A DNA stretch of 64,000 nt from IMG/VR virus record IMGVR_UViG_3300045988_061913, positions 1 through 64,000 of that record. One strand, written 5' to 3'. This DNA comes from a virus. The translations under genes were made by a program, and so were the position numbers. The notes below the pieces were generated by a model. The model was given only the letters and a program-made list of their open reading frames with translations, searched no databases and was not told the DNA's origin. Positions 11,049 to 60,047 of the stretch are shown in pieces. Each line of letters starts with the position of its first letter. Position 1 is the stretch's first letter.

Positions 11049-11052
11049 CTTT

Positions 11053-13072: not shown

Positions 13073-13274
13073 CAACAAAATTAAATAATTATGAAAGTAT
13101 ACGTAGTGAACCATCATCCAGCTAATGCGCCTCAGAACTATAAAACTGAGTGTCAGATATTTCTGGATAAAAAGGAAGCCGAAGGCTATAAGAAAGCCAA
13201 GGAAGAAGAATATCCCATACGTTGGGGAGGTGAATACAATCATTGTGAAATATTTAAAAAGCATTTGTAATATC

Positions 13275-13345: not shown

Positions 13346-13350
13346 ACTAG

Positions 13351-13363
13351 TAATTAATTAGAT
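13351..13363 (+). promoter_or_regulatory. Conserved TAATTAATTAGAT motif (also at 1334-1346 and 11950-11962) just upstream of start codons
   Basis: An identical 13-mer occurs three times, each within ~25 nt upstream of an ATG and twice directly after a tRNA 3-prime end. Confidence 0.4.
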
Positions 13364-13379
13364 ACTTAATTTTTAGATT

Positions 13380-13805: not shown

Positions 13806-14098
13806 GCGTAATACAACAGGTCTACTTAGCTGAATCAGGCAGTTCTATTTACATAAAGGGAATTAAACCTGATAAAGAGAATGAATATTCTGGTGAGATT
13901 ACTCTAAACGGTAATCCCACTAGATTAGAGAGAAAAGAACGTTACCATATAAGTAACGGTATGCTTGTTACAGATAGTTATCATATCCCTATGGAGTTCA
14001 TTATTAGCTTCTTGCAGGCTAACGGATGTGTTCAAGAAGGAGAAGATGGCAAGTCGTATGTTGTTTTAAGAGAAGTAGAATTTAAATTGAATAACTAA
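13802..14098 (+). CDS. Hypothetical protein (98 aa)
   Basis: ORF in the track, with an ATGA overlap with the previous gene. Confidence 0.45.
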   Translation: MSVIQQVYLAESGSSIYIKGIKPDKENEYSGEITLNGNPTRLERKERYHISNGMLVTDSYHIPMEFIISFLQANGCVQEGEDGKSYVVLREVEFKLNN

Positions 14099-14122
14099 TG
14101 TTATCAGTATTATATAGCGAAT

Positions 14123-14245
14123 ATGAGCTGTCCTAATTGTGGGTGCGATTCCGTTATAAGTAGTGGAGTTTCTGGAGGAGGTCTAACATCTGGAACTTGT
14201 AGACATTGCAAGTTAAAATTTGAAGCGAAAATCCAATGGGAATAG
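14123..14245 (+). CDS. Small zinc-ribbon-like protein (40 aa; CPNCGC...CRHC)
   Basis: ATG at 14123 and in-frame TAG at 14243-14245. There are two CxxC pairs. It is below the ORF-track length cutoff. Confidence 0.3.
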   Translation: MSCPNCGCDSVISSGVSGGGLTSGTCRHCKLKFEAKIQWE

Positions 14246-14556
14246 TCAAATATGGCTGCCATCCAGAAAATCCCTCAGACCCGAAATCTAAATGGGTTAT
14301 GGAAAGCGCAATCAGAATTGAACATCCTAGAAAAGGTATTCCTGCATGGAATTGGGAACCAGTTGACGAACGTCCAGAAGAAGGAGAATATTGGAACTCT
14401 CGTGGTCCTGGCTATCCAGATGTTTCTGGCTTTGTAAAGACCAAAGCTGCTGGTGAGCGTATTCTAGCTATGGTGCATGAAGTGTTAGGAACTGACAAGT
14501 GTAAGACTTATCTAGATTTCAGACCAAGTGAACCAACGTGGATTCAAATTTCATAA
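14236..14556 (+). CDS. Hypothetical protein (106 aa)
   Basis: ORF in the track. Confidence 0.45.
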   Translation: MGIVKYGCHPENPSDPKSKWVMESAIRIEHPRKGIPAWNWEPVDERPEEGEYWNSRGPGYPDVSGFVKTKAAGERILAMVHEVLGTDKCKTYLDFRPSEPTWIQIS

Positions 14557-14639
14557 AGACGAGTTTGATATAGAGAAACTAGATTCTCTTACTCGTGATA
14601 GTGGAATAATTACTAAAGACATAATCAAACAATGTATTT

Positions 14640-14891
14640 ATGGCAAAAGTAGTAAATAGGGCCTCTGATATAATCCAACTTAAAGACCTAAAGGATGGGG
14701 AATTTGCAGAAGTAATAGAATGGTTTGAGGATGGAACAGTATCTAACGGAGATATAATTCAAAGATGTGGACTTGCACTATTTATATTAGGAAGTTGTTC
14801 TTACTATCCTGAGATATTTAGTAAGGGTGCTAGAGACTATACTAATACTAAGTTACGAACACTACCTGAGGGTACAACTATAATGTTATAA
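14640..14891 (+). CDS. Hypothetical protein (83 aa)
   Basis: ORF in the track. Confidence 0.4.
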   Translation: MAKVVNRASDIIQLKDLKDGEFAEVIEWFEDGTVSNGDIIQRCGLALFILGSCSYYPEIFSKGARDYTNTKLRTLPEGTTIML

Positions 14892-15455
14892 TTTCTTTTT
14901 CCAGTTTTCTAATTAAAGATAAACTGGGTATGGGCCTACTTGGATTTGACAGGCGATTACAAATTATAAGGACGTGTAGAGCGCAATCTCTTTAAACGAA
15001 GAAAAAACAATAAATGCTACTTATAGCGAAGTAAGAATGGCAGCCTAAGCTGCTGGCTTGTTGGTAGACACTATTAACTAAGTCGGGTTACGGGAGAGAC
15101 CTAGAAACAGAAGAGGTTGAGTATATTGATATAATGGAGAGCTAGGCTCTAATCCTAGTAATATGCTCTTAATCAGAACACTCTAAGAGTTAGTAAGACT
15201 GAATCTCCTATGTCATAAAACAGATGGAAGATGTGAGATGTGACGAATCTCTAAAGTATCATCCCGTTCTCCAACGTAAATGGAGTGGTGGAACGTTGAC
15301 TTCGGTCAGCCCTATAGTTTGGTAGCTTGTAGATAAGCATCTAGAGAAATACTTAGTATGGACTCTTGTAAGACTTATAAAACTACCTAAATGCTAGAAC
15401 TCCCTAGCTGATATAATAAAAATGAGACGCACGTTATCCTTGTAACGAGGGTTGT

Positions 15456-15486
15456 TTGGACACGGGTTCGACTCCCGTTAGGTCCA
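15456..15486 (+). other. Isolated tRNA 3-prime-half-like fragment (T-arm ACGGG-TTCGACT-CCCGT plus acceptor strand TAGGTCC-A) at the end of a ~560 nt noncoding tract
   Basis: Canonical T-arm and 3-prime acceptor resembling the 3-prime end of the tRNA-Met at 7266-7340. No matching 5-prime half lies immediately upstream. Confidence 0.4.
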
Positions 15487-15492
15487 CATAAT

Positions 15493-15566
15493 AGGGCTAT
15501 AGCTCAACTGGTTAGAGCACCACACTGATAATGTGGAGGTTATCAGTTCAAGTCTGATTAGCCCTA
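15493..15566 (+). tRNA. tRNA-Ile(GAT)
   Basis: Acceptor AGGGCTA/TAGCCCT, D-arm GCTC-AACTGGTTA-GAGC, anticodon arm CCACA-CTGATAA-TGTGG and T-arm ATCAG-TTCAAGT-CTGAT. Confidence 0.7.
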
Positions 15567-15703
15567 CAAAACCGCCAGCTCACGCGGTATATAAGAAAGG
15601 ATTGCCGGACTCGCAGGTGTAACGAGATAAATACCTGCATTTTCGAGGCTGTGGTGTAATGGCTTGCATATCACACTGTCATTAAAATTAATTAAACTTA
15701 TCT

Positions 15704-16249
15704 GTGAATCGAGAACAATCTCTTAAATTGTATTATGAGAATCCTAACCACTGTAAGGAATGTGGTAATGTAATCGAAGTACTAGATAATCAGAGGGTCG
15801 CAGATGTGAGGAAGAAACAGTTTTGTAGTCATTCGTGTGCTGCTTCTTACAATAATAGAGGTAGGATAAAGCACGATGAAAACAAGATATGTCCTAGATG
15901 TGGTAAGCATAAAGATTCAGAAATTTGTCGTAGTTGCTGGGAAGAACTTAATGGAATTGGTAACAAAACATTAGGTTATTATACATCTGGGCAGAAGTAC
16001 TTATCATCTAAATGTCAAGAAATAAGGACTAATGCTCGTAGAGTATTAGAAAGTTCCGAACGTGAGAAAGTATGTCAATATTGTCATAATCATGAATTTG
16101 ATGCAATACTTGAAGTACATCATCTTAAAGGAATATTAGAATTTGACGAAGGCACTCTTATTAAAGAGATTAACAATGAGAATAATTTAGTATGGTTATG
16201 TCCGAATCACCATATTATGTTAGAGAAGGGTTTAATTAGTCTGGAGTAA
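15704..16249 (+). CDS. HNH homing endonuclease with an N-terminal Cys-rich zinc-finger region (GTG start)
   Basis: CxxC...CxxC clusters, then the HNH core EVHHLKG...NLVWLCPNHH. It is free-standing between tRNA genes. Confidence 0.7.
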   Translation: MNREQSLKLYYENPNHCKECGNVIEVLDNQRVADVRKKQFCSHSCAASYNNRGRIKHDENKICPRCGKHKDSEICRSCWEELNGIGNKTLGYYTSGQKYLSSKCQEIRTNARRVLESSEREKVCQYCHNHEFDAILEVHHLKGILEFDEGTLIKEINNENNLVWLCPNHHIMLEKGLISLE

Positions 16250-16260
16250 TCCAGTTACAC

Positions 16261-16332
16261 CGAGGGTTAGTTCAGTGGTAGAATAGTGCACTGTCTATGC
16301 GAAGGTCACCAGTTCAAGTCTGGTACTCTCGG
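16261..16332 (+). tRNA. tRNA-Asp(GTC)
   Basis: Acceptor CGAGGGT/ACTCTCG, D-arm GTTC-AGTGGTA-GAAT, anticodon loop CTGTCTA and T-arm ACCAG-TTCAAGT-CTGGT. Confidence 0.55.
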
Positions 16333-16370
16333 CACTGTGAAGGTTGGGGTCCCCCAGTCTCGGCATTTAT

Positions 16371-16443
16371 TCCCCTGTAGTTTAGTTGGTTAGAACACGT
16401 GATTTGTAATCTCGAGACCTCGGTTCGAATCCGAGTGGGGGAT
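16371..16443 (+). tRNA. tRNA-Thr(TGT)
   Basis: Acceptor TCCCCTG/TGGGGGA, D-arm GTTT-AGTTGGTTA-GAAC, anticodon loop TTTGTAA and T-arm CTCGG-TTCGAAT-CCGAG. Confidence 0.6.
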
Positions 16444-16470
16444 CTTAACCATTAAATCAGATTAATTTTT

Positions 16471-17145
16471 ATGACTAGATTAGAAAAGTATTTAGTAGCA
16501 ACTGCTACTGAGATTATCGAAGCGGAAACAACTGTTTCTCGCTACTTTGTCATTGGAAACGTCAAAGTTAGAGTATCAGACCATTTAAGTAAAATGAGTG
16601 ATGCAGACTTACAAGTGATTATTCCATTGAACGGAGGGACTAAGTATATAGTTACTGTTAAGGATAGTCCTGGAAAATTTCTTGTATGGAATGCAACTCA
16701 AATAAAAGACTTTATTCCTTCATTGCAGATTATTAAGGGCTTGAAGGAAGGAGTACAACTTAAGCCAAAACCTAAAGACTCTGCAGTTCAGAAGATTCAG
16801 CTAGCATTAAATAATAGTAATACCGATGGAGGTTCGTTAACGTTCGATGGTACTATTATCGAGTCTAGATTGAAAGAAAAGCAACTTACCTCCAAACAGC
16901 GGGAAGTTTTCAGGAGAACTAAATCTACTTGGGATATTTCTCAGATTGGAACATTACCCAGTATGATTAAAGTAGATTTGGGATTGTCAAATGGTTCTGT
17001 AAACGAAGATGTGCAGATATTTCTAATTTGTACATCTTTAACCTACAAAGAAATTCTGAACATTTATAAAATAATAGTTGTTGATAACCATATGGTTCCA
17101 ACTATTAAACTGTTGCAAGAAGCTTATAGCTTAATTGTGCAGTAG
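16471..17145 (+). CDS. Hypothetical protein (224 aa)
   Basis: ORF in the track. Confidence 0.5.
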   Translation: MTRLEKYLVATATEIIEAETTVSRYFVIGNVKVRVSDHLSKMSDADLQVIIPLNGGTKYIVTVKDSPGKFLVWNATQIKDFIPSLQIIKGLKEGVQLKPKPKDSAVQKIQLALNNSNTDGGSLTFDGTIIESRLKEKQLTSKQREVFRRTKSTWDISQIGTLPSMIKVDLGLSNGSVNEDVQIFLICTSLTYKEILNIYKIIVVDNHMVPTIKLLQEAYSLIVQ

Positions 17146-17148
17146 GAT

Positions 17149-17220
17149 AGCGCCATCATCTAATGGTTAGGATTCAGGCTTTTCACGCCTGCCATACGGG
17201 TTCGAATCCCGTTGGCGTTA
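17149..17220 (+). tRNA. tRNA-Glu(TTC)
   Basis: Acceptor AGCGCCA/TGGCGTT, anticodon arm CAGGC-TTTTCAC-GCCTG and T-arm ACGGG-TTCGAAT-CCCGT. Confidence 0.7.
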
Positions 17221-17277
17221 CTATGTACCCCAGCAGCGGAAGTTGTTGGGGTATTTTTTGTTTAATATAATTAATAA

Positions 17278-17598
17278 TTGATGAGAAAAACATTTGAGTT
17301 TGTAAAGGTTGGGGGAGTCTGGTTCTATTGGTGGCCAGATTATGACGGAACACCAGAGGAACTAGCAATGGTTGGTGGTGCAGATGAACTTCTTGATTCT
17401 CTAGATAATAAGTTTGTTAGATTGCAGATGGTTGACCCAGCTACAGCTAAGATAACGTTGTCTAAAATTGAGGAGGATGAATGTGGAGCAACTTACTTAT
17501 GCAAAAGTAAGAATTACAATGACAGGGTATGGATTTGTGCTGTAACTCTATCAGTATTCGGGGAATATCCTCAAAATATTTACCTAAAAGATATGTAA
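17278..17598 (+). CDS. Hypothetical protein (106 aa); the true start is probably the ATG at 17281
   Basis: ORF in the track. Confidence 0.45.
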   Translation: MMRKTFEFVKVGGVWFYWWPDYDGTPEELAMVGGADELLDSLDNKFVRLQMVDPATAKITLSKIEEDECGATYLCKSKNYNDRVWICAVTLSVFGEYPQNIYLKDM

Positions 17599-17601
17599 AA
17601 A

Positions 17602-17970
17602 ATGAAAACGTTAAATGAGATTTTAGACAATTACAAAGACTATGCCGTAGTTCTCGATGACCGTTTCGGTTCTAGATTAGCAAAGTTTTTAACAGAAGAG
17701 CAGTTAGAAAAAATAGGCTTCAAGTACGATGGTGATGAGCCTTATCCAGAGCCTAAGGAATGGACTAGAGAGAATATCCTAGAGCAACTTAAGTCTGACG
17801 TGGAGTTTGGTTTTGAGAAGGCTCTAGACCAGAGAGGCATTTCAGCTAGCCTAATGTTCTACGTGGTACTAAGGTGGAATCAAGTTCTAGAAGAGGGCTT
17901 AGAGAATTATCCTGAAGAGAATTATGCTATGTTGCCTTTGTTTAAGGCTACTGCTGTAAAGTATGGATGA
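17602..17970 (+). CDS. Hypothetical acidic protein (122 aa)
   Basis: ORF in the track. Confidence 0.5.
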   Translation: MKTLNEILDNYKDYAVVLDDRFGSRLAKFLTEEQLEKIGFKYDGDEPYPEPKEWTRENILEQLKSDVEFGFEKALDQRGISASLMFYVVLRWNQVLEEGLENYPEENYAMLPLFKATAVKYG

Positions 17971-17992
17971 GAGAATCCTATAGGCGACGATA

Positions 17993-18217
17993 ATGGGGAC
18001 GAAGAGTTCTACAATGAGTAGCGCTATGAAGGAATCTTCTATACTTAAAGCAATTTCTGACGCTATTGAAGAATACGAGGAAAATCAACAAAGACGAATA
18101 GACCTGTTAGAGAGTAAAATTCTGCTATTTGAGAGAGAAAGGGAGGCTTTTATTCGGCATTTGAGAGAAGGAAACATTCAATTATTAAAGGATTATCTAG
18201 GAATTAAAGATGAGTAA
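17993..18217 (+). CDS. Hypothetical coiled-coil protein (74 aa)
   Basis: ORF in the track. Confidence 0.4.
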   Translation: MGTKSSTMSSAMKESSILKAISDAIEEYEENQQRRIDLLESKILLFEREREAFIRHLREGNIQLLKDYLGIKDE

Positions 18218-18422
18218 GTACTATTTAATTAAGGAATGTAATAATATTCCTTTTATCTTAGGACAGTTCGATAGTATTGAAGAGGCTGAGGCCGCTCTTC
18301 CTTCTACAAATAAGAAGGGAGCTAAGCACTTTGTCGTTTGTTCTACAGAGCAATTAAAGTCAGCAAGGGCGGTAACTCAAAATTACTGGGATATTAGATT
18401 AATAGAAGAAGAAGTTTTATGA
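18210..18422 (+). CDS. Hypothetical protein (70 aa)
   Basis: ORF in the track. Confidence 0.4.
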   Translation: MSKYYLIKECNNIPFILGQFDSIEEAEAALPSTNKKGAKHFVVCSTEQLKSARAVTQNYWDIRLIEEEVL

Positions 18423-18913
18423 AAAAGAAAGTTTTAATTATCCTTATGATTAGTATTGTATTCGGATTTGCAACTGGTTATTCTTTGCATCATCTGATAC
18501 ATTCCAATCAGAAACAGGAGGAAATGGTATTGCTGCCAGAGCATCCATTCTACTTATTGGATGAAGTAAACGAAGAAGTATTGTACAATACTTTGAAGCA
18601 TTACGATTTTCCAAATCCAGCAATTATAACAGCTCAGGCTGTTCTGGAATCTGGCAATTTTAAATCGAAACTTTGTAAGGATAATAACAATCTGTTCGGG
18701 TTGTATAACTCCAGAACAATGTCTTACTTCAAGTTCGATAGTTGGATAAGCTGCGTGTTCGCTTATAAGCAATTTATCCTTAGTAAGTATAACCCAGAAG
18801 AGGATTATTACAAATTCCTAGACAGAATTGGCTACGCTGAGGATTCCTTGTATGAAAGTAAAGTTAAGGAATTGGAATTAGATATACTTAATAAATATGG
18901 AAGCTCAAATTGA
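18419..18913 (+). CDS. Membrane-anchored peptidoglycan hydrolase, glucosaminidase (FlgJ/mannosyl-glycoprotein endo-beta-N-acetylglucosaminidase-like) family; candidate endolysin
   Basis: N-terminal TM/signal-anchor segment, then AQAVLESGNFKSKLCKDNNNLFGL, which matches the glucosaminidase-domain consensus (AxAxxESGWG...NNLFGIK). Confidence 0.55.
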   Translation: MKKKVLIILMISIVFGFATGYSLHHLIHSNQKQEEMVLLPEHPFYLLDEVNEEVLYNTLKHYDFPNPAIITAQAVLESGNFKSKLCKDNNNLFGLYNSRTMSYFKFDSWISCVFAYKQFILSKYNPEEDYYKFLDRIGYAEDSLYESKVKELELDILNKYGSSN

Positions 18914-19115
18914 AGAAGCTATCAAATTTAGAAAGAAAGCTAATTTCAAGATATTAACTAGATTAAGTCAAATCATTGACCAATATCCTTATCTAAGATT
19001 TCACCAAATTCTTATTATATATAAGATTAGTGAGCTGGGAGTGGATAAGTTCAATGAGGAGAGTGTAGAAACTTTGAAGAAGCTAGAGCATGAAATGGTG
19101 GAAAAAAGGAATTAG
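18897..19115 (+). CDS. Hypothetical protein (72 aa)
   Basis: ORF in the track. Confidence 0.35.
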   Translation: MEAQIEEAIKFRKKANFKILTRLSQIIDQYPYLRFHQILIIYKISELGVDKFNEESVETLKKLEHEMVEKRN

Positions 19116-19245
19116 TAAGATTACTAGTAATAGTTCTGATGGGAACAATACTATTAGTAACTAGGGAAGTAACGGGTTTTGAGACCGCAGTTATGACTGG
19201 TCTAACTATTATATTATGCAATCAAATATTTAACGAATAAAGATT

Positions 19246-21261
19246 ATGAATTTTAAAGATTTCAAGAAAGATGTAGAGTCTGCTTTCAATGCTATGATTG
19301 CAGATAATTTATTTGTAGTTAATGTAGACAAAGACCTTTTGTGGATGAGTTATCTTCTCTCCTTTGAGGACGAAACAATTCGGCAAGATCACAATTGTAA
19401 TGCTTGTAAGTCTTTCATACATCACTATGGTAAGGTAGTCGCTATAGACCCTCAAACCTACAAGGTGAAAACCTTCTGGGATGATGTTCACACTCCTGGC
19501 TATGAAAAGACCGCATCTGATTTAGCTAAGCTCGTTAAGGAAGCTGGAATAGGAGATATATTCATTCAGGATGTTAATGAGTTTCACGGTTGTGACCATA
19601 ATGTGCAACTTCTTCCTGATGGAACTACTAGAACTTGGACTCACTTGTACGTGACTATTCCTAACAAGTTTAAATTCAACAAGAGAGTACATCATTTCGA
19701 TTCTGCCGCAGGTTATCGCGGAGATGTTAGAGCTAGAGCTGGTGTCTTTGAACGCTCTCTTTCCGAGCTTAAACTAAGTGCGGTAGAAACCGTAATTGAG
19801 TTGATAGAGGATAATAATCTCTATCGCGGAGAAGAGTTCCTAAAGACTCTGCAAGAGTTCAGAAGAACTATGCTTGAGGCCGATAATCTCTCACCAGAGG
19901 TTCGCACTAACTATTGTTGGTTTAACTTCAAATCTCCAATAGCTAAAATTAGAAATACGGCTATGGGAACTCTACTGATTGACTTAAGTAATGGTGTAGA
20001 CCTGGAAAGAGCTGTTAAGTCTTATGAGAACATTATGGCTCCATCTAACTATAAGAGACCTACTGCTCTTATTACTAAGAAACAAATTGAGGCTGCTCAG
20101 AAGAAGGTTGAAGAACTTGGGTTAACTGATGCCCTTCCTCGCCGTCATGCTCGTGTAGAAGATATTTCTGTAAACGACGTTCTGTTCGTAAATAGAGACA
20201 CTCGTGCACGTATGAAAGGAGGTATATTTGACTCTTTAAAAGAGACCTCAACGGTTAATCCTAAAGAGTATACCAAAGCTACTGAAATTTCAATTTCGGA
20301 GTTTGTAACTAATGTATTGCCACACTCTAAGGATGTGCAAATTCTTGTTGAGAATAAGCATATTCCTAATTTTGTTACCCTAACTGCTCCAGAGAACCCT
20401 GATGCAGGTCAGCTGTTCAAATGGAAGAATAACTTCGCTTGGGTGTATAATGGCTCTATGGCGGATTCATTCAAGGAGAAAGTAAAAGCAGCAGGTGGTA
20501 ACGTAAATGGATTCCTAAGATGTTCTCTACACTGGTTTAACTATGATGACCTTGACCTCCATGTAACAGAACCTGGTGGTAATGAAATCTATTACGGGCA
20601 TAAGAGAGGATTAACTGGTGGTACACTAGATGTAGATATGAACGCTGGTTCTGGTAAAACCAGAGATGCAGTCGAGAATATTATCTGGACTGACCAATCT
20701 AAACTCAGAGCAGGTCGATATGAAGTGCGTGTGCATAACTTCTGCAAAAGAGAACATATAGACTTTGGATTCGAGGTAGAAATCGAAATCAATGGAGAAC
20801 TTCATAAGTTCAACTATGATAAGATGGTGTCAGACAGAGAATATATTGCGGTAGCAATTATCAAGGTAGATTCTATTGGTAATATAACCCTAAGTCCGGT
20901 AATTGCCGAAGGTGCAACTTCATACAAGTCTATGAACGAGTGGGGCATTGATACTATGCGTTTCCAAACTGTTTCTTGCATCATGTATTCTCCAAATTAT
21001 TGGGAAGGTAATGAAATAGGAAACAAGCACCTATTCTTCATGATTGATGGATGTAAAAATCCTGACCCAGTTCGAGGATTCTTCAATGAATATCTGAGAC
21101 CCGATCTCGAAAAAGATCATAAGAGAGTATTCGAAGCTATTGGCTCTAGAGCTAAAGCAGAATACAACGATAACCAGTTGAGTGGACTAGGATTCTCTAG
21201 TACGTCTCACGACGAGGTTGTAGTTAAAGTTGATAATAAACCATTTAAAATTAAATTCTAA
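19246..21261 (+). CDS. Large hypothetical protein (671 aa)
   Basis: Long uninterrupted ORF with no recognisable catalytic motif; conserved-looking stretch LHWFNYDDLDLHVTEPGG...GGTLDVDMNAG. Confidence 0.6.
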   Translation: MNFKDFKKDVESAFNAMIADNLFVVNVDKDLLWMSYLLSFEDETIRQDHNCNACKSFIHHYGKVVAIDPQTYKVKTFWDDVHTPGYEKTASDLAKLVKEAGIGDIFIQDVNEFHGCDHNVQLLPDGTTRTWTHLYVTIPNKFKFNKRVHHFDSAAGYRGDVRARAGVFERSLSELKLSAVETVIELIEDNNLYRGEEFLKTLQEFRRTMLEADNLSPEVRTNYCWFNFKSPIAKIRNTAMGTLLIDLSNGVDLERAVKSYENIMAPSNYKRPTALITKKQIEAAQKKVEELGLTDALPRRHARVEDISVNDVLFVNRDTRARMKGGIFDSLKETSTVNPKEYTKATEISISEFVTNVLPHSKDVQILVENKHIPNFVTLTAPENPDAGQLFKWKNNFAWVYNGSMADSFKEKVKAAGGNVNGFLRCSLHWFNYDDLDLHVTEPGGNEIYYGHKRGLTGGTLDVDMNAGSGKTRDAVENIIWTDQSKLRAGRYEVRVHNFCKREHIDFGFEVEIEINGELHKFNYDKMVSDREYIAVAIIKVDSIGNITLSPVIAEGATSYKSMNEWGIDTMRFQTVSCIMYSPNYWEGNEIGNKHLFFMIDGCKNPDPVRGFFNEYLRPDLEKDHKRVFEAIGSRAKAEYNDNQLSGLGFSSTSHDEVVVKVDNKPFKIKF

Positions 21262-21263
21262 TT

Positions 21264-21638
21264 ATGTACAAACAAGCGTCTAAAATGAAGTTGCGCTTTG
21301 CAACTAGTAAAGGTAATTTGAGTGTGGAAGATTTGTGGGACTTAAGTCTTCCTGCATTGGACAGACTGGCAGTGTCCTATGACGAAGAATTAGCCAAGAG
21401 TCCTAGAAAATCTTTCATAACTAATGATACTCCTAGCAATAGCGAACTGGAGTTAAAGTTCAACATTGTGAAAGATGTTATCACTGATAAGCTGAAAGAC
21501 AAGGCTGCTAGAGAAGCAGCTAAAGATAAGGCAGCTGAGAAGGCACGCCTGACTGAACTGCTGGCTAAGAAACAGTCTGAGAAAATGGAAAGTATGTCCG
21601 AAGATGAAATCAGACAACGACTTGCAGAACTCGGATAA
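21264..21638 (+). CDS. Hypothetical protein (124 aa)
   Basis: ORF in the track. Confidence 0.45.
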   Translation: MYKQASKMKLRFATSKGNLSVEDLWDLSLPALDRLAVSYDEELAKSPRKSFITNDTPSNSELELKFNIVKDVITDKLKDKAAREAAKDKAAEKARLTELLAKKQSEKMESMSEDEIRQRLAELG

Positions 21639-21918
21639 TTGTGTCGTATTGAAAACAGTTAGTCCACAAATCTTAGATAAACTAAGGGAAAGTGGATTGA
21701 CTGTTTGTACGTGTTGTGAATTTCCTGGTACAGCCTGGTTAGTATTCAGACCAAATATGCCTACATCGGATATTCACGGTGAGGGGTATGATTTCGAAGA
21801 GATAGGACTTTTTGGAACAGAGGCTGTTCTCAAATACTTCGAAGCTAACACTCCGAATTATGTAGATTGCGGAACTGATGTCGATAAATTTATTAACATT
21901 TGTTTGCAGTTTAAATAA
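21604..21918 (+). CDS. Hypothetical protein (104 aa)
   Basis: ORF in the track. Confidence 0.4.
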   Translation: MKSDNDLQNSDNCVVLKTVSPQILDKLRESGLTVCTCCEFPGTAWLVFRPNMPTSDIHGEGYDFEEIGLFGTEAVLKYFEANTPNYVDCGTDVDKFINICLQFK

Positions 21919-22004
21919 GTTAACGGTTTTTAACTTTGAATTTAACACTTGTACTGTTATTATAGTAAGTTGATTAGCGGTACGTGAGTATAGCTAATTA
22001 CTAT

Positions 22005-22090
22005 GCCCGAATGGTGGAATTGGTAGACACGTCAGATTTAAGCTCTGATGCCCAGTAATGGGCGTGTGGGTTCGAGTCCCACTTCGGGTA
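22005..22090 (+). tRNA. tRNA-Leu(TAA), type II
   Basis: Acceptor GCCCGAA/TTCGGGT, anticodon arm TCAGA-TTTAAGC-TCTGA, long variable arm and T-arm GTGGG-TTCGAGT-CCCAC. Confidence 0.75.
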
Positions 22091-22172
22091 GAAACACAAG
22101 ATTGAAACCTCCACGTGGTGTGTTTTGGGTAAAGCTAATTCAATCAATTATTAATAATGTTATAAATAGTTT

Positions 22173-48994: not shown

Positions 48995-49130
48995 ATATGC
49001 TAAAGAAAACTTATGTAAAGATTGCTTGACTTGTGCAGACTTCGGGTATTATTGTAGAGGAAATAAAGAAAGATGTAATGCGTGGAAATACGATGAAAAA
49101 GCACATTATAGAATTGATAAAGTTGTATGA
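48963..49130 (+). CDS. Small Cys-rich (zinc-ribbon-like) protein, 55 aa
   Basis: ATG at 48963 runs in-frame to a TGA overlapping the next start. It encodes CKDCLTCADFGYYCRGNKERC and is below the ORF-track cutoff. Confidence 0.3.
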   Translation: MGMTKKQIYLEYAKENLCKDCLTCADFGYYCRGNKERCNAWKYDEKAHYRIDKVV

Positions 49131-49792
49131 GTAAAGTTTTAATTATTCCAGATGTTCACGGTAGACCATTCTGGAGAAAAGCAAAAGAGAAGATTAATAG
49201 TGTGGATAAGGTAGTCTTTTTAGGGGACTACCTCGACCCATATGGTTATGAAGGTATTACTAGAGAGAATGCGATAGAGGAGTTTAAAGAGATTATCCAA
49301 TTCAAAGTTGATAATCCCGATAAGGTAATACTACTCCTTGGAAATCACGACTGTGCTTATTGCTATGATTTCGGAAGTGCTTCTAGGTATGATTACGCTA
49401 ATGCAGAGCTAATTAAGGAAATGTTTGAGAATTTCAAGTCTCTATTCCAACTCAAATACTTCTCGGAAGGTATTCTATATACTCATGCTGGAGTTACTAA
49501 TGATTGGTTAAAGAGTATGGATTTTACTATTACTGACCTAATTACTAAGCCTGAGGACTTTCTAGTTGGCTTCCTATGGGAAGTATCTCGTATGAGAGGA
49601 GGGTGGTCTAATACAGGCAGTATGGTATGGAGCGATGTCAGAGAAGGAGATAGAGAGTCTACATATTATCAAATATTTGGGCATACTCAATTGGAATCAG
49701 AACCCATTATTACTGACAAGTTTGCTTGCTTAGACGTAAGAAGACCTTTTATATTAGATACAGAAACTAAAAAGATTGAGGAGTATGCTTAA
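49127..49792 (+). CDS. Calcineurin-like metallophosphoesterase (Ser/Thr phosphatase-like)
   Basis: Motifs DVHG, GDYLD and GNHD in canonical order. Confidence 0.65.
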   Translation: MSKVLIIPDVHGRPFWRKAKEKINSVDKVVFLGDYLDPYGYEGITRENAIEEFKEIIQFKVDNPDKVILLLGNHDCAYCYDFGSASRYDYANAELIKEMFENFKSLFQLKYFSEGILYTHAGVTNDWLKSMDFTITDLITKPEDFLVGFLWEVSRMRGGWSNTGSMVWSDVREGDRESTYYQIFGHTQLESEPIITDKFACLDVRRPFILDTETKKIEEYA

Positions 49793-53186: not shown

Positions 53187-53413
53187 CACTAGAAGAACTT
53201 AAAAAGAAAGTAGTCACTATTACAGTACACAAAAATATTGTATTAGGGGAAGATTTACATGAAGATGATCTGCTAGAGTTTCTCGAACTGCAAGAGGAGG
53301 AGGCTTGTTCTGACGAAAGATTATTACAAGCAATAAAAAATGCCTACTACGGAACTCTTAGTGATATTGAAGATATTATCTACGATAACCTCAATGTAAC
53401 TATTCATGATTAA
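53183..53413 (+). CDS. Hypothetical protein (76 aa)
   Basis: ORF in the track. Confidence 0.4.
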   Translation: MTLEELKKKVVTITVHKNIVLGEDLHEDDLLEFLELQEEEACSDERLLQAIKNAYYGTLSDIEDIIYDNLNVTIHD

Positions 53414-54605
53414 ATATTTGTTAAGCAAAGCCTCAACTGGCAAGTTTAGAGTTGTATATTTATCTACTACAGAGCAGTGGGATGAAGAAAAAGCTGGATT
53501 TGTAATTAATAGAGTTACAGGACAGCTACATGGAAAGATGACAGAGCAACCAGAAATAGTCATTACTAAAGGAAAAGCTGGTAGAACGCATAGAGAACAA
53601 CTTGAGTTGCAGTTTAAGTCTGAGCTTAAGAAATATTTAGATAAGGGTTACAAGGAGCTAGAGAACGATCCCGAAACTTATAGCGAAACTCAATTGGAAG
53701 AATTTTATGGAGACATTAAAACCGACCAGAATGGATTTGCAAAGCACATGCTTGCAAAATCTGCAGATAAAGTTAAGGAATCCTCAATCAATAAGGTTAA
53801 GTATTGGTATGCTAGCAGAAAAATTGATGGAGTTAGGTGTTCCTTCTACTATAAGGACGGTGAGATTCTATCTGCTTCCAGAGGTGGGGGGAATTATGAC
53901 TATTCAACAAGCCATATCCGAAACAATGAGAGATTGCTTGAGTTCTTCAGGAATCATCCCACTTACATTCTTGATGGAGAGTTGTATAGACATGGTAAAA
54001 GTCTCCAACAAATCAGTGGAGCAGCTCGTCTTGAGAAAAACGCAGTTGACTGCGACTGGCTTGAATATTATGTTTACGATATAATGATTCCTAGTATGAA
54101 GTTCTCTGATAGGCTTGAAATTCTTAAGCAGCTTCAGAAAGAACTTAATCTTGGATTTAATCCAGATAAAGATTGGGAAGAGGGTGAGTTACAATTGCAA
54201 ATAGTCCCGCAGGAAAAGGTCTCTGGGTACGAGAATATTATGAAACTGCACAACCAATATGTTTCAGAAGGTTGGGAAGGAGTAGTATGTAGAAATCCAG
54301 ATAAAGAGTATGGCTTCGGCAAGCGTACTAATGATATGCTAAAATTTAAATTCTACAAAGATGCAGAGTTTGAAATTACTGGTTTATCAGAAGGTCTTCG
54401 GGAAGAAGATATGTGTTTTACGCTAATAACAGAAGATGGTATAGAATTTAAAGCTAAACCAATGGGTTCTAGAGAACTTAAACAGCAATATAGGGAAAGA
54501 CTTAAGGAGCTGATAGGAAAGATGGCTACTGTTAAGTACTTCTATCTATCTGATGAAGGTACTCCATTGCAACCTGTACTAAAATGTATTCGCGATTATG
54601 AGTAA
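53406..54605 (+). CDS. ATP-dependent DNA ligase
   Basis: Motif I RKIDGVR (KxDGxR), with HMLAKS upstream, motif III LDGELY, motif IV EGVVCRNPD and motif V MLKFK. Confidence 0.75.
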   Translation: MIKYLLSKASTGKFRVVYLSTTEQWDEEKAGFVINRVTGQLHGKMTEQPEIVITKGKAGRTHREQLELQFKSELKKYLDKGYKELENDPETYSETQLEEFYGDIKTDQNGFAKHMLAKSADKVKESSINKVKYWYASRKIDGVRCSFYYKDGEILSASRGGGNYDYSTSHIRNNERLLEFFRNHPTYILDGELYRHGKSLQQISGAARLEKNAVDCDWLEYYVYDIMIPSMKFSDRLEILKQLQKELNLGFNPDKDWEEGELQLQIVPQEKVSGYENIMKLHNQYVSEGWEGVVCRNPDKEYGFGKRTNDMLKFKFYKDAEFEITGLSEGLREEDMCFTLITEDGIEFKAKPMGSRELKQQYRERLKELIGKMATVKYFYLSDEGTPLQPVLKCIRDYE

Positions 54606-56075: not shown

Positions 56076-56563
56076 AATACGAAAAATTTGATATTCTAAA
56101 GAAAGCTAAATATTCTATCGTTCCGAATAATAGAGAGCTGTATGTAGTTTATGTAGAATGTGACGCAAACGATGGTGATTACATGAGAGATACTATTGAA
56201 TTTGATAAAGAATCGTTTGAAGAAGACGAACTTCTCCTATTGGTTTTATCATATGTTAGTAAGTATTCCGGAAGATTTTCTGAGAAAGGATGGAACTCTG
56301 CAGGATATGGGCACCATGTAGATGAAAACAAAGATTTTCCTTGGTTGTCGGAGTATCTATCTGAAAATGATACTCTGATATTCGCTGGAATGTGTGATAT
56401 CATGTGCCATAGCGTATCTCAGATACGTATAGAATATTATGACAACGATGGAAGAAAGAATAAGGTAGAGCTTCCTGATGTAGATAATCTTTTTGAAAAC
56501 AAACAGGAGTTTGTGGATTATTTAAATAGTCTGTACAAACTGTATTATGATGAAATTGAATAA
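56072..56563 (+). CDS. Hypothetical protein (163 aa)
   Basis: ORF in the track. Confidence 0.45.
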   Translation: MKYEKFDILKKAKYSIVPNNRELYVVYVECDANDGDYMRDTIEFDKESFEEDELLLLVLSYVSKYSGRFSEKGWNSAGYGHHVDENKDFPWLSEYLSENDTLIFAGMCDIMCHSVSQIRIEYYDNDGRKNKVELPDVDNLFENKQEFVDYLNSLYKLYYDEIE

Positions 56564-56873
56564 TGGAGGAAAGCTCCCAGACAAGTTTAAAATAGCTAAT
56601 CAAGAAATAACCGTAATCATAGAAGATTCTCTTCCAAATAACGATTACGGTTATTTTTGTGATGCTACTAACACTATTAAATTGGCGAGAACAGTAAAGT
56701 CTGAATATGAAGGAAACGTCTCTATGAGTGATGAACAGCTTAGGAATACATTTTATCATGAGCTGTTTCATGTTTTCCAGTTCTATTACAATAATGAATT
56801 TAATGAGATTCAGGCTCAAGTATATGCTAACTTTATGTGTGAATTTATAGAAACTACTGAAGAACCATTTTAA
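56547..56873 (+). CDS. Small HExxH zinc-metallopeptidase-like protein
   Basis: FYHELFHVFQF contains an HExxH motif. Confidence 0.4.
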   Translation: MMKLNNGGKLPDKFKIANQEITVIIEDSLPNNDYGYFCDATNTIKLARTVKSEYEGNVSMSDEQLRNTFYHELFHVFQFYYNNEFNEIQAQVYANFMCEFIETTEEPF

Positions 56874-56884: not shown

Positions 56885-58252
56885 ATGGAGTTATTAAAAA
56901 GTAAGAAAGCCAATGTCAATTATTTGGCAAAGATTGTAGAAATTAAGAATTTTAGACAACACAGTAACCCAGAAGTAACTAGACTTAAGTGTTGCACCAT
57001 CGATGGATTTAACATTATTACTGGTATTGATTCCCAGCCAGGATTGTATGTTTATTTCCCAACTGCTTGTTGCATTAATCCTGATTTTCTAAGGTATTGC
57101 AACTTGTATAGACATAAGGAGTTGAACAACGACCCAGAACAAACTGGTATGTTTGAAGACAATGGTAGAGTCAAAGCTATTAGACTTAAAAATGAACTGT
57201 CGGAAGGTTTTATTATGCCCATTATACAGTTCCAAAACTACATAATGTCCGTAACTAATAAAGAGATAGAAATTGAAGTAGGAACTGAATTTGATATTGT
57301 AGAACATGAAGGCAAAGAATTTTGGATTAACAAGAAGTACATCCCTAAGAGACAGCAAGGACAAGGTGGCACACCACGTAACAACCAAACGAAGAAGGTC
57401 AAAGGAATCAGCAAGGTCATTGATGAACAATTTAGATTCCACTACGACACAACTCTTATTAAGAAATATCCTAATGTAATTCATCCAAATGATTTAATCA
57501 GTATTACTGAGAAAATTCACGGAACTTCTGGTATATCAGCTTATGTGCTTTGTAAACAAGACCTGAACTGGAAACAGAAAATCGCTAAATGGCTTACTGG
57601 AGAAGAGTTCAATAAGTATGACTATTTGTATGCTTCTAGAACGGTAATAAAGAATCAGTTCTATAATAAGAATGTTACTCCTGGATTCTACGGGTGTGAC
57701 GTTTGGGCGGAAGCTGATAAAATAGTTAAACCTTGCTTGTCTAAAGGTATGACTGCATATTATGAAATCGTTGGTTTCTTACCTAATGGTGGCTATATCC
57801 AAAAGAATTATGACTATGGCTGTATACCTCCTAAAGAAGGAGAACAGTATACTCATGAAAAGCACTTTAAAGTGCGAATATATCGTGTAACATTAACTAA
57901 TGTTGATGGTGTAGTTCACGAATTTAGTGCTAGGGAAGTTCAACAATGGTGTGCTAAGGTAGGTCTTATCCCAGTGGAAGAGTGGTATTATGGTACTGCC
58001 AATAGCTTATATCCAGAACTTAACGAAGCTGAGCACTGGAACGAAAATTTCATGGAGAAATTAGCTAACGACGCTAGATTCTATATGGAGCGAACTTCGC
58101 CATCTTGCGATAACAAAGTGCCTCATGAGGGAATAGTTATTAAGATTGAGAATATGAAATCTGAGGCATTTAAGCTTAAATGTTTTAAATTCCTAGATAA
58201 GGAAGGAAAGGAACTTGACAAAGGTGAAACTAATATTGAAGACGAAGCATGA
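56885..58252 (+). CDS. RNA ligase (Rnl2-like nucleotidyltransferase) with a ~200 aa N-terminal extension
   Basis: Motif I EKIHGTS (cf. T4 Rnl2 EKIHGTN), with downstream covalent-nucleotidyltransferase motifs YYEIVGF, HEGIVIKIE (EGxVxK) and FKLK. Confidence 0.6.
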   Translation: MELLKSKKANVNYLAKIVEIKNFRQHSNPEVTRLKCCTIDGFNIITGIDSQPGLYVYFPTACCINPDFLRYCNLYRHKELNNDPEQTGMFEDNGRVKAIRLKNELSEGFIMPIIQFQNYIMSVTNKEIEIEVGTEFDIVEHEGKEFWINKKYIPKRQQGQGGTPRNNQTKKVKGISKVIDEQFRFHYDTTLIKKYPNVIHPNDLISITEKIHGTSGISAYVLCKQDLNWKQKIAKWLTGEEFNKYDYLYASRTVIKNQFYNKNVTPGFYGCDVWAEADKIVKPCLSKGMTAYYEIVGFLPNGGYIQKNYDYGCIPPKEGEQYTHEKHFKVRIYRVTLTNVDGVVHEFSAREVQQWCAKVGLIPVEEWYYGTANSLYPELNEAEHWNENFMEKLANDARFYMERTSPSCDNKVPHEGIVIKIENMKSEAFKLKCFKFLDKEGKELDKGETNIEDEA

Positions 58253-59105: not shown

Positions 59106-59355
59106 ATCGTTTATAACAAGCGAGCCGGGAAATTCAATGCTCCCTCTGTATAAGAGCAATGAAAAGCATCTTGTCACTCCTATAAGGTGGCAAGAATGTA
59201 ATGTTGGAGATGTAGTATTTTGTAAAGTTAGAGGCGCTTGCGTTACTCATAAAGTATACGCGATAGACTCAAACAAAGGATGCCTTATTGGAAATAACAA
59301 AGGGCATATGAATGGATGGACTAAAAATGTTTACGGATTAGCTCATAAGATATGA
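59059..59355 (+). CDS. S24-family (LexA/UmuD-like) serine peptidase domain protein, standalone
   Basis: GNSMLP is the Ser nucleophile motif (cf. GDSM). VGDVVF...VTHKVY supplies a candidate general-base Lys. The start is uncertain and overlaps the upstream ORF by 46 nt. Confidence 0.45.
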   Translation: MNPNTLRKIQRLEAGESFITSEPGNSMLPLYKSNEKHLVTPIRWQECNVGDVVFCKVRGACVTHKVYAIDSNKGCLIGNNKGHMNGWTKNVYGLAHKI

Positions 59356-60047
59356 AAATATGTGCAATAAGTGATTTACATGGATTTCTAATTGATTATA
59401 TAGAGCCATGTGAACTTGTTTTAATATGTGGAGATATTGTTCCTCTTTATATGCAGAGAAACAAGCCACAGTGTGAGAAGTGGTTGAAGACTGTATTTGC
59501 AGATTGGATTAAATCATTGCCGTGTAAGAAGGTAGTATTTACAGCTGGAAACCATGATTTTGTTTTTGAAAATAGGGATTTTCTTTGGAATAACTCTGTG
59601 ATTAAATTTCCTACAGAAGGAAAAGCTGAATTTCTTGATAATTCTCATCTAGACTATCTAAGTGATGAAGGAAAGGTATATAGAATTTATGGAACTCCGG
59701 CCTGCCATGAATTTGGTAATTGGGCTTTCATGTATTCTGATGAGAAACTGGAAGAAATCTATTCACATATCCCAGGAAATTGCGATATATTGATTAGTCA
59801 TGATGCTCCCGCATTAAATGATTGTGGTATGATTCCACCTGGTAGGTGGAGTTCTACTCCCATAAATGCAGGAAATGAGGTCTTGGCTAAGGCTATTATA
59901 GATAAGAAACCGAAGTATGCTTTTTGTGGACATATCCACGAAGGAAATCATTGGCTACTAGATGCAGGCGAGACAAAGACCGCCAATGTATCTATTCTCG
60001 ATGACTCTTACGATATTAATTATGAACCTTTATATTTGGATATTTAA
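59352..60047 (+). CDS. Calcineurin-like metallophosphoesterase (second copy)
   Basis: Motifs DLHG, GDIVP, GNHDF and GHIHEG. Confidence 0.6.
   Translation: MKICAISDLHGFLIDYIEPCELVLICGDIVPLYMQRNKPQCEKWLKTVFADWIKSLPCKKVVFTAGNHDFVFENRDFLWNNSVIKFPTEGKAEFLDNSHLDYLSDEGKVYRIYGTPACHEFGNWAFMYSDEKLEEIYSHIPGNCDILISHDAPALNDCGMIPPGRWSSTPINAGNEVLAKAIIDKKPKYAFCGHIHEGNHWLLDAGETKTANVSILDDSYDINYEPLYLDI

Follow-up and report, generated by a model that had tools for sequence, protein, structure and literature searches.

The window, the whole stretch of 64 kb of viral DNA analysed here, encodes on its plus strand a putative RNA ligase of 455 residues with an ATG start, at exactly the coordinates given in the initial annotation (Table 1). 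A separate ATP-dependent DNA ligase is present upstream, from which it had rightly been distinguished. The protein is an ordinary member of a widespread family of phage RNA ligases: it matches PHROG 968 ('RNA ligase') over its entire length (E-value 2.6e-40), and full-length copies sharing 95-99% identity with it are carried by gut-phage contigs of about 185 kb. PHROG 968 also includes the 'RNA ligases' of mycobacteriophages of clusters E, J and L (Omega gp162, LeBron gp85 and Zaria gp86) and proteins from Microbacterium, Gordonia and Bacillus phages; these phage homologues share 26-30% identity with the present ligase at 97-98% coverage. A single-protein scan for related loci recovered close relatives only (64-99% identity), and the genomic contexts of distant relatives were drawn from an annotated phage collection. 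A phmmer search of the PDB with the single sequence gave no relevant match, a family profile being required, and the score for the Pfam RNA_ligase domain was below threshold.

Table 1. Features of the RNA ligase and of its surroundings (positions in the window)
Feature	Position	Strand	Residues	Details
RNA ligase gene	56885..58252	+	455 aa	ATG start; coordinates include the stop codon; ORF list
N-terminal OB module, Rnl5 type	56885..57349	+	1-155	
Basic Gln/Lys/Gly-rich linker	57350..57424	+	156-180	pLDDT, composition
Nucleotidyltransferase (adenylyltransferase) domain, C-terminal	57425..58249	+	181-455	
Motif I, EKIHGTS	57509..57529	+	209-215	
Lys210	57512-57514	+	210	Predicted AMP-accepting nucleophile
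Motif Ia, ASRTVIKN	57632..57655	+	S251, R252	Conservation, alignment
Motif III, AYYEIVGF	57755..57778	+	Glu294	Conservation, alignment
Motif IIIa, RIYRVT	57875..57892	+	Tyr333	Conservation, alignment
Motif IV, HEGIVIK	58124..58144	+	Glu415-Gly416	Conservation, alignment
Motif V, AFKLKC	58166..58183	+	Lys430, Lys432	Conservation, alignment
HExxH ORF	56547..56873	+	108 aa	12-nt gap upstream of the ligase
ATP-dependent DNA ligase	53406..54605	+		DNA_ligase_A_M 76 bits and OB_2 (Pfam)
Lambda-phosphatase/NinI-like metallophosphoesterase	49127..49792	+		Metallophos 47 bits
Second metallophosphoesterase	59352..60047	+		Metallophos 47.8 bits; in the ligase-Pnkp block
tRNA array	282..22091	+		20-22 tRNA genes and a tmRNA hit (14932-15489); ARAGORN, Rfam

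All six nucleotidyltransferase motifs of Rnl5-type ligases (I, Ia, III, IIIa, IV and V) were located and are conserved among 48 diverse homologues, near-invariant meaning here at least 90% conservation. In motif I, which had been correctly recognised, K210 and G213 are invariant and H212 near-invariant, and K210 aligns with K170 of NgrRnl (Naegleria gruberi, PDB 5COT) and K35 of T4 Rnl2. The near-invariant S251 and R252 of motif Ia align with the invariant SRN of canonical Rnl5. The invariant E294 of motif III aligns with the QGE motif of canonical Rnl5 and with 'FGEFAG' of T4 Rnl2 (E99). Motif IIIa (Y333 and R334, both near-invariant) aligns with 'FYVFDI' of Rnl2, motif IV (E415 and G416, both invariant) with 'REGLVFK' of NgrRnl (E312) and 'AEGYVLK' of Rnl2, and motif V (K430 invariant, K432 near-invariant) with the lysines of NgrRnl 'FKAIS' and Rnl2 'IKCKN'. 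The sequence also departs from the characterised Rnl5 enzymes. Motif I reads KxHGTS, with His212 replacing the metal-binding Asp of KxDGSS in NgrRnl and in DraRnl of Deinococcus radiodurans; this Asp is not essential, since the D172A mutant of NgrRnl is active. An invariant Asn-Tyr stands where NgrRnl has Arg4. The γ-phosphate arginine of NgrRnl (Arg149, in the 'KTDxER' element) has no clearly conserved counterpart, 'FRFHxDT' replacing 'PKTDxER' with no arginine aligned.

The His-for-Asp exchange, the unclear Arg149 counterpart and the sub-threshold scores against curated ligase models could also fit a catalytically diverged nucleotidyltransferase that does not join strands (for instance an RNA 5'-adenylyltransferase, or an enzyme resembling capping enzymes) or an inactive RNA-binding factor. 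Overexpression of LeBron gp85 is highly toxic in M. smegmatis (PMC13148394), an effect not necessarily expected of an enzyme devoted to repair alone. We regard this alternative as improbable. The protein presents neither the OB domain C-terminal to the nucleotidyltransferase nor the closest structural neighbours that would mark a DNA ligase or an mRNA capping enzyme.

The region preceding the catalytic domain had been described as a long extension and as a possible novel domain of about 200 residues for substrate recognition or end healing. It corresponds in fact to the OB domain already described for Rnl5-type ligases: the module is homologous to the N domain of DraRnl and NgrRnl by both sequence profile and structure, and its K151-Y152 occupies the place of Lys121 in NgrRnl. 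The 209 residues ahead of the motif I lysine are real, but this is no true extension because 169 and 164 residues precede the same lysine in NgrRnl and DraRnl, respectively, leaving only about 40 additional residues. Residues 1-200 show no phosphoesterase or kinase fold. The following linker is predicted to be disordered (pLDDT 50-75, below 50 at residues 166-171) and lies outside the alignment to canonical Rnl5. As in Rnl5 enzymes, which have no domain after the nucleotidyltransferase and end about 30 residues after motif IV, the protein stops 40 residues past E415 and 23 past K432 of motif V, with short helices only in the predicted structure of its C-terminal tail. It exceeds DraRnl and NgrRnl by 115 residues, of which 7 are N-terminal, about 28 belong to the linker, about 63 to insertions of the catalytic domain and 10 to an acidic tail at the C-terminus, and shares only 14-18% identity with them. 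It belongs to a divergent clade with Rnl5 architecture and is not a DraRnl equivalog, since its score against the equivalog model TIGR02306 (NCBIfam RNA_lig_DRB0094) is 24.9 bits, far under the cut-off of 151, with the match confined to the OB part.

The initial annotation had assigned the protein to the Rnl2 type, with a possibly novel N-terminal domain and the two metallophosphoesterases (MPEs) of the window as candidate end-healing partners; in the resulting model, the ligase and these MPEs would repair tRNAs in place of a kinase-phosphatase. Its motifs are indeed Rnl2-like: motif I is nearly that of T4 Rnl2 (EKIHGTN), and T4 Rnl2 was the sole PDB ligase detected, marginally (E 0.05), with a profile restricted to the nucleotidyltransferase core. 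The catalytic half is no nearer to canonical Rnl5 than to Rnl2, local hhalign comparisons giving E-values of 3e-12 for Rnl2 and 4e-8 for canonical Rnl5 cores, although these small profiles are indicative only. The nucleotidyltransferase is nevertheless C-terminal, behind 180 residues; the N-terminal region matches the Rnl5 OB module and gives no match to Rnl2, which has no such module. In contrast to T4 Rnl2 and the kinetoplastid RNA-editing ligases (REL1), the protein also lacks the defining C-terminal domain of Rnl2, on which Rnl2 depends for nick recognition and 5'-adenylylation, since the alignment covers only residues 11-236 of the 337 of Rnl2 and no sequence remains past motif V. The flanking domain thus decides for an Rnl5-like assignment, whereas motif I alone would wrongly send this family to Rnl2. 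The protein is not an Rnl1 either, the C-terminal tRNA-specificity domain of T4 Rnl1 being missing.

The initial annotation had also remarked that no P-loop polynucleotide kinase was seen. This is true of the window, in which a Walker-A scan and a comparison of Zaria Pnkp with all ORFs revealed no such kinase; the three ORFs with a Walker-A motif are all of helicase or AAA types. The situation changes beyond its edge: a tblastn search of the flanks of related loci identified a T4-type Pnkp encoded 3.1 kb past position 64000 in relatives whose DNA is about 99% identical up to that position. Judging from the sequence of these relatives, the kinase is missing only as an artefact of the window edge, and the kinase-free window no longer supports healing by MPEs. 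Ligase and Pnkp genes are adjacent or at most 10 kb apart in five independent phage groups, the evolutionary linkage that characterises T4-type heal-and-seal systems. In such systems, one genome encodes the ligase and a Pnkp combining a P-loop 5'-kinase with a DxDxT HAD 3'-phosphatase. Among culturable relatives, ligase and Pnkp are gp85 and gp74 in LeBron, and gp157 and gp158 in PBC2.

Both MPEs, recognised as such in the initial annotation, are calcineurin-like, but they are found inconsistently near the ligase, and the conservation of neighbourhoods rules them out as conserved partners. The MPE at 59352 lies in a lineage-specific block between ligase and Pnkp (with an S24-like ORF, a sigma factor, a Tad2-like gene and PolA) and was found only in relatives of at least 92% and below 70% identity, being present in none of the 26 loci of the 70-90% tiers. 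The MPE at 49127 is missing near the ligase in most loci of these same tiers. It matches phrog_246 (NinI-like) and positions 172-320 of the 737 of phrog_8238 ('RNA ligase'), a PHROG whose proteins combine an MPE domain of this kind with an RNA ligase, and Lak-A1 carries a homologue (38% identity) 1.9 kb downstream of its ligase. It recalls the MPEs of the Clostridium thermocellum Pnkp and lambda phosphatase type, which are able to remove 2',3'-cyclic and 3'-phosphates (PMC2190708), and calcineurin-like phosphatases have occasionally been proposed as healing enzymes of jumbo phages (PMC7824862). Unlike C. thermocellum Pnkp, however, it is fused to neither kinase nor ligase, and its linkage to the ligase varies across lineages. 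A weak accessory role in 3'-end healing is possible for this MPE in view of the Lak-A1 homologue. With a canonical Pnkp in the lineage and no healing fold in the N-terminal region, the model of an Rnl2-type ligase acting through a novel domain and two MPEs is largely refuted, and we consider it very improbable.

The present data establish the fold and order of the domains, the conserved motifs, the family to which the protein belongs and the genomic linkage to Pnkp; its catalytic activity, its specificity for nicks and tRNA as its natural substrate are inferred. This predicted ATP-dependent ligase of Rnl5 architecture probably provides the sealing step of RNA repair by a heal-and-seal route. 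By analogy with DraRnl and NgrRnl, Lys210 would attack ATP to form ligase-AMP, with the OB module, which carries Lys151, positioning the pyrophosphate leaving group; AMP would then be transferred onto a 5'-phosphate, and attack by an RNA strand through its 3'-OH would seal a nick in a duplex or stem. Hallmarks of Rnl5 enzymes are a preference for Mn2+, an OB domain required for adenylylation and the sealing of 3'-OH/5'-PO4 duplex nicks only where the 3'-OH strand is RNA. The healing half would be provided by Pnkp, about 9 kb downstream and just outside the window, the two enzymes restoring tRNAs, of the host or encoded by the phage, broken by host anticodon nucleases. T4 Rnl1 and Pnkp likewise associate an ATP-dependent RNA ligase and a kinase/HAD-phosphatase in a tRNA-rich phage. 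The T4 pathway counters the anticodon nuclease PrrC; here, tRNAs are the presumed substrate. The departures in motif I and at Arg149 and the low TIGR02306 and Pfam scores weigh against this reading as a whole, as does the fact that Pnkp is read from relatives rather than from this window. Characterised Rnl5 enzymes are, in addition, sealers of duplex nicks in which only the 3'-OH strand must be RNA, DNA being accepted elsewhere; their physiological substrates are described as 'uncharted', and the sole known phenotype, delayed genome reassembly after irradiation upon loss of DraRnl, concerns DNA repair (PMC5397189).

The gene neighbourhood provides further points against RNA repair. A large set of tRNA genes is indeed present, but the figure of about 25 first given was too high: ARAGORN and Rfam each detected 20, with a union of 22 in addition to one tmRNA hit. 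All lie 35-56 kb upstream of the ligase, which is located in a module of replication and nucleotide metabolism (DNA ligase, dUTPase, NrdD, PolA, helicases, primase). No tRNA was found within 10 kb of the long-form ligase in eight other loci, and physical linkage between the two was discarded. Of all neighbouring genes, the DNA ligase is retained most consistently (in the lower identity tiers, in 5/6, 19/20 and 3/4 loci), and MT835470 and Bacillus phage PBC2 also have one close to their RNA ligase. This context would fit a role in DNA replication or repair, in which the protein, alongside DNA ligase and PolA, would seal nicks with 3'-OH ribonucleotides (primer remnants, misincorporated rNMPs or stop-gap ribo-patches), and Pnkp would heal damaged ends of DNA or RNA. 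We consider such a role a plausible but clearly minor alternative. The vicinity of replication genes argues only weakly for it, since early and middle phage modules routinely mix replication and counter-defence functions. Tight linkage to Pnkp and co-occurrence with tRNAs at the genome level, in several unrelated phage groups, mirror T4 RNA repair, and a canonical Rnl5 lies inside the tRNA cluster of Arthrobacter phage Racecar, the only such case. The same genomes harbour other translation-rescue or anti-defence genes (the tmRNA hit, NAD salvage and the Tad2-like gene).

The RNA-repair reading, which we favour, was published a decade ago for the phages of PHROG 968 named above (PMC3706429), and the co-occurrence of Pnkp and ligase has been published for clusters E, J and L. 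These phages share with the present one the linkage to a T4-type Pnkp, NAD-salvage genes and phage tRNAs. They differ in infecting Actinobacteria, whereas the present ligase is found in gut phages of another host phylum (the Lak relatives being assigned to Prevotella) with Pnkp 9 kb away, behind the lineage-specific block. The initial annotation is partly confirmed in its observations and partly supported in its interpretation. As now corrected, the annotation of the gene is sound but routine, adding one more to the widely annotated phage 'RNA ligases', with an N-terminal domain already known from DraRnl and NgrRnl. The outcome is mainly corrective, concerning the assignment from motif I and the missing kinase. 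The long-form clade is large and tightly linked to Pnkp across very different phages, and its members could show whether Rnl5-type ligases really perform tRNA repair.

The small ORF immediately upstream of the ligase contains an HExxH motif and matches phrog_1233 and, weakly, the putative metallopeptidase families DUF6782 and DUF5700. It was not detected in distant relatives and was discarded as a universal partner; it is retained in gut lineages only, where 5/6, 12/20 and 3/4 loci in the lower identity tiers have it.

The initial annotation had located the RNA ligase gene and its motif EKIHGTS exactly, and had rightly kept it apart from the DNA ligase at 53406 (see the table below). The window has a G+C content of 36%, carries nearly all of its genes on the + strand and belongs to a lineage of human-gut phages whose genomes measure ~185 kb. 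The ligase is barely detected by curated single-family models: Pfam RNA_ligase scores 20.8 bits over residues 206-435 (cut-off 27), NCBIfam TIGR02306 (RNA ligase, DRB0094 family) scores 24.9 bits (cut-off 151), and residues 29-113 give a faint match to the "PHA02142 OB-fold domain". The match to PHROG 968 "RNA ligase" spans the full length (E 2.6e-40). Homologues are full length and abundant (1,878 clusters at 90% identity; 2,032 representatives at 50% identity, most of 430-460 aa), so that the N-terminal part is an integral conserved half of the family and not an extension of one gene. Annotated phages contribute 379 matching records (coverage 89-100%), from Lak megaphages (53% identity), Desulfovibrio and Synechococcus phages (38-40%), Vibrio phage 2.275.O, Bacillus phage PBC2, Microbacterium and Gordonia phages, and 296 Mycobacterium phages in which the protein is annotated "RNA ligase". 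The PBC2 homologue, gp157, is labelled "2'-5' RNA ligase", the name of another enzyme family, and looks mis-annotated.

Coordinates of the features discussed (window nucleotides unless ligase residues or another locus are named)
Feature	Position	Strand	Remarks
SPFH/Band-7 protein	3523-5481	+	652 aa
tRNA called by ARAGORN alone	5541-5630; 11206-11273		Ser; Cys
tRNA called by Rfam alone	11053-11127; 13000-13072		
tmRNA (RF00023)	14932-15489	+	full-length Rfam match, 62.2 bits, gathering score 47, E 7e-22
HNH endonuclease ORF	15704-16249		inside tRNA array
Outer-membrane beta-barrel + OmpA domain protein	26438-27454	+	338 aa
NAPRTase/Nampt-family enzyme	28881-30407	+	NAD+ salvage
PRTase (PRPP-type)	30792-31601	+	NAD+ salvage
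Calcineurin-like metallophosphoesterases	49127-49792; 59352-60047		
Cytidylyltransferase-like (NMNAT-type) protein	51196-51750	+	NAD+ salvage
ATP-dependent DNA ligase	53406-54605		DNA_ligase_A_M 76 bits, DNA_ligase_OB_2
HExxH ORF (HELFH)	56547-56873	+	108 aa; 12 nt upstream of ligase
RNA ligase ORF	56885..58252	+	ATG start, 455 aa
Ligase motif I EKIHGTS	57509-57529	+	residues 209-215
Ligase OB module	residues 1-155		
Ligase linker	residues 156-180		Lys/Gln/Gly-rich, disordered
Ligase adenylyltransferase	residues 181-455		motifs I 209-215; Ia 250-257; III 291-298; IIIa 331-336; IV 414-420; V 428-433
Trp-rich ORF	58506-59105	+	199 aa; just downstream of ligase
Tad2-like ORF (Thoeris anti-defence 2)	61266-61589	+	107 aa; Pfam 36.5 bits, cut-off 25
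T4-type Pnkp in relatives	L074 20238-21152; L005 19381-20316		window-equivalent ~67.1-68.0 kb

RNA ligase families are told apart by their flanking domains: Rnl1, 2, 3, 4 and 6 combine an N-terminal nucleotidyltransferase with distinctive C-terminal domains, whereas Rnl5, known from bacteria, bacteriophages, archaea and unicellular eukaryotes, is the only one in which an N-terminal OB module precedes a C-terminal nucleotidyltransferase (PMC7261155, PMC1807946, PMC5397189). The latter architecture is that of the window ligase. Its OB half matches the canonical Rnl5 OB module (probability 99.2%, E 1.6e-19) and not Rnl2 (0.2%, no match), and the Rnl2 C-terminal domain is absent, since the protein ends 23 aa after motif V. 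The flanking domain thus decides the family unambiguously as Rnl5, against the Rnl2 type first proposed. The chief novelty claimed for the protein, an atypical N-terminal region of ~200 aa, turns out to be a known ligase accessory domain, the Rnl5 OB module, of a length typical for Rnl5 (169 residues before motif I in NgrRnl of Naegleria gruberi and 164 in DraRnl of Deinococcus radiodurans).

In an alignment of 48 homologues (34-60% identity), K210 and G213 (motif I), E294 (motif III), E415-G416 (motif IV) and K430 (motif V) are invariant, and K432 (motif V) is present in at least 90% of the sequences. The top PDB match of this profile is NgrRnl (5COT, E 5e-8), with most of the score coming from the N-terminal domain (profile 14-122 against NgrRnl 7-109) and with motif I and motifs IV-V paired collinearly; the match to T4 Rnl2 is weaker (E 1e-3) and confined to the catalytic core. 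The AlphaFold2 model built from the same alignment is confident (pLDDT 92, pTM 0.89), with a single disordered stretch at ~155-180, and its best 13 Foldseek matches are NgrRnl entries throughout (E ~1e-13, ~450 alignment columns). Comparison by hhalign with an alignment of five canonical short phage Rnl5 (phiAS4, PAK_P2, BcepSaruman, Racecar and Serratia BF) gave a probability of 99.45% (E 5e-22) over 333 aligned columns, spanning positions 8-431 of the first alignment and 3-358 of 360 of the second. K151-Y152 is the counterpart of an invariant Lys in canonical Rnl5, equivalent to NgrRnl Lys121, which is among the residues holding the ATP gamma-phosphate (PMC7261155). NgrRnl Arg4 corresponds to Asn12, shared by at least 90% of the sequences, and the invariant Tyr13. 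Profiles and model together show a two-domain Rnl5-type ligase whose active site is predicted to be intact.

The catalytic core is less typical. Motif I is of the Rnl2 kind, with His at +2, and differs from the KxDGSS of canonical Rnl5; "EKIHGTN" and "IQKNVDYG" of T4 Rnl2 align in the same order with "EKIHGTS" and "IQKNYDYG" of the window ligase, and when the PDB is searched with a profile of the catalytic half by itself, T4 Rnl2 is the sole match (E 0.05). The catalytic half matches T4-type Rnl2 (Rnl2 residues 11-236 only) with a probability of 97.6% (E 3.3e-12) and the canonical Rnl5 catalytic half with 94.9% (E 4e-8), and the latter matches Rnl2 with 97.2% (E 4e-11). The three cores are therefore about equidistant; these half-by-half profiles are local and small, making any ranking indicative only. 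Compared with NgrRnl (340 aa), the window ligase is longer by 115 residues: ~7 are added at the N-terminal end, ~28 lie in the stretch joining the OB module to motif I, ~63 are insertions in the catalytic domain (from motif I to motif Ia, and ahead of motif IIIa) and ~10 form an acidic tail. In view of its failure against the curated equivalog model and its Rnl2-like core motifs, the most apt description is a member of a divergent long-form clade with Rnl5 architecture. We found no biochemical assay of any long-form member in the literature. The window ligase is built like an Rnl5 ligase and presumably works like one: by analogy with DraRnl and NgrRnl, it would seal nicks in three ATP-dependent steps, the OB module would promote lysine adenylylation, and the 3'-OH strand of the nick would have to be RNA.

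The 64-kb window contains no P-loop polynucleotide kinase, as judged from Walker-A ORFs and a bona fide phage Pnkp (polynucleotide kinase-phosphatase) probe; Walker-A motifs were seen there only in an AAA ATPase (8352), a helicase (35064) and an AAA_24 protein (38296). The initial annotation was correct on this point for the window. The DNA of four related loci (L003, L014, L016 and L074) matches the window at ~99% identity as far as position 64000, and L074 encodes, 3.1 kb further, a 304-aa protein with the motifs GIQGSGKS and DMDAT (HAD_PNKP 94.5 bits, AAA_33 55 bits), so that the missing kinase is most probably a window-edge effect. A tblastn search with Pnkp against all 80 ligase loci placed it ~0.7 kb downstream of ligases of 73% identity, 2-3 kb downstream at 84%, and 8-10 kb downstream, in many cases truncated by the end of the locus, at 92% or more (the window's lineage); in the four loci below 70% it was not found within the locus. 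Across lineages, the distance grows from 0.7 to 9 kb by insertion of a block comprising, in this lineage, the 59352 metallophosphoesterase, an S24-like ORF, a sigma factor, a Tad2-like gene and PolA. The Tad2-like ORF lies between the sigma-factor gene and PolA.

The pairing recurs widely. In mycobacteriophage Zaria, ligase gp86 lies 3 kb from gp76, a T4-type Pnkp (motifs GYPGSGKS and DIDGT), near a PRPP transferase/nicotinate ribosyltransferase pair and a tRNA cluster. In PBC2 (L097 9995-12272), Pnk gp158 directly follows the ligase and precedes a DNA ligase, PRPP synthetase and Nampt; in Microbacterium phage Tandem, Pnk gp76 and ligase gp74 flank gp75. Mycobacterium phage records in the phage collection number 303 for Pnkp and 296 for the ligase, and Pnkp is also present there in Lak-A1 and Aeromonas phage 44RR2.8t. 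Lak-A1 Pnkp homologues of the gut lineage occur on contigs of 178-197 kb, and the IMG/VR contigs on which one of these homologues was located also carry the ligase. In Lak-A1 itself, the two genes are ~270 kb apart.

This genomic linkage suggests that the ligase would be the sealing partner of Pnkp in RNA repair, most plausibly of tRNAs cut by host nucleases. The family is known (hundreds of phage genomes have it annotated as RNA ligase), and such a role has been proposed before: Pope et al. suggested RNA repair for Omega gp136 (Pnk), gp162 (RNA ligase) and phage tRNAs, and observed that Pnk and RNA ligase genes are present in every phage of clusters J, E and L and in no others, and that each of these phages has one or more tRNA genes (PMC3706429). 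Phages of clusters E, J and L are among our homologue matches. PARIS AriB nicks tRNA anticodon stems, leaving 3'-OH/5'-PO4 ends (PMC12409363); that the clade is a tRNA-directed repair ligase, which could reseal such nicks directly, is a speculative and rather unlikely extension. LeBron gp85, of the same family, is strongly toxic on overexpression in M. smegmatis (PMC13148394) and therefore acts on something in the cell, which does not indicate the target. The chief competing explanation, less probable but plausible, is that the ligase serves DNA replication or repair; it is supported by the replication-module setting of the gene, the DNA ligase as a conserved neighbour and the irradiation phenotype of DraRnl (PMC5397189).

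Neighbour conservation was scored over the 80 loci. In the 70-90% identity tiers, the genes kept are NrdD, two small ORFs, dUTPase, the DNA ligase, the HExxH ORF and PolA. The two metallophosphoesterases, correctly recognised and put forward as end-healing partners, are not conserved near the ligase in these tiers (49127 in 0/6 and 3/20 loci, 59352 in 0/6 and 0/20), and the lineage has Pnkp. An accessory role of the 49127 enzyme is possible, since it matches a PHROG whose members fuse such a domain to RNA ligase and has a homologue (38% identity) 1.9 kb downstream of the Lak-A1 ligase (L093 13340-14071), and since jumbo phages have been proposed to use calcineurin-like phosphatases occasionally for end healing (PMC7824862); this role is neither needed nor backed by consistent linkage. 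The HExxH ORF, with weak matches to putative metallopeptidase DUFs, lies near the ligase in 5/6, 12/20 and 3/4 loci of gut lineages and was not detected near ligases of distant relatives. The Trp-rich ORF, without a match in Pfam, PHROGs or NCBIfam, occurs only in the tier of at least 92% and in 2/4 loci of the tier below 70%.

The large tRNA array is real, with 20-22 genes rather than the ~25 first counted: ARAGORN finds 20 (282-22091) and Rfam 20, with a union of 22 plus one tmRNA match. Its first gene lies 282 nt inside the window, so that the array may continue upstream. The tmRNA match, which has no ARAGORN call, abuts tRNA-Ile (15493) and is, at 558 nt, long for a tmRNA; a phage-encoded tmRNA, if such it is, would suit a translation-rescue theme. 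In Arthrobacter phage Racecar (L086 710-2564), a tRNA cluster surrounds a canonical short Rnl5 of 322 aa: four tRNA genes immediately precede it, and tRNA-His follows after 20 nt.

Homologues of the NAPRTase/Nampt and PRTase of the window accompany long-form ligase and Pnkp in Zaria and PBC2 (41-46% identity), which suggests that NAD salvage, ligase and Pnkp form a recurring counter-defence gene set. The SPFH/Band-7 and beta-barrel/OmpA proteins are unusual phage cargo; LeBron also encodes a Band-7-like protein (PMC13148394).
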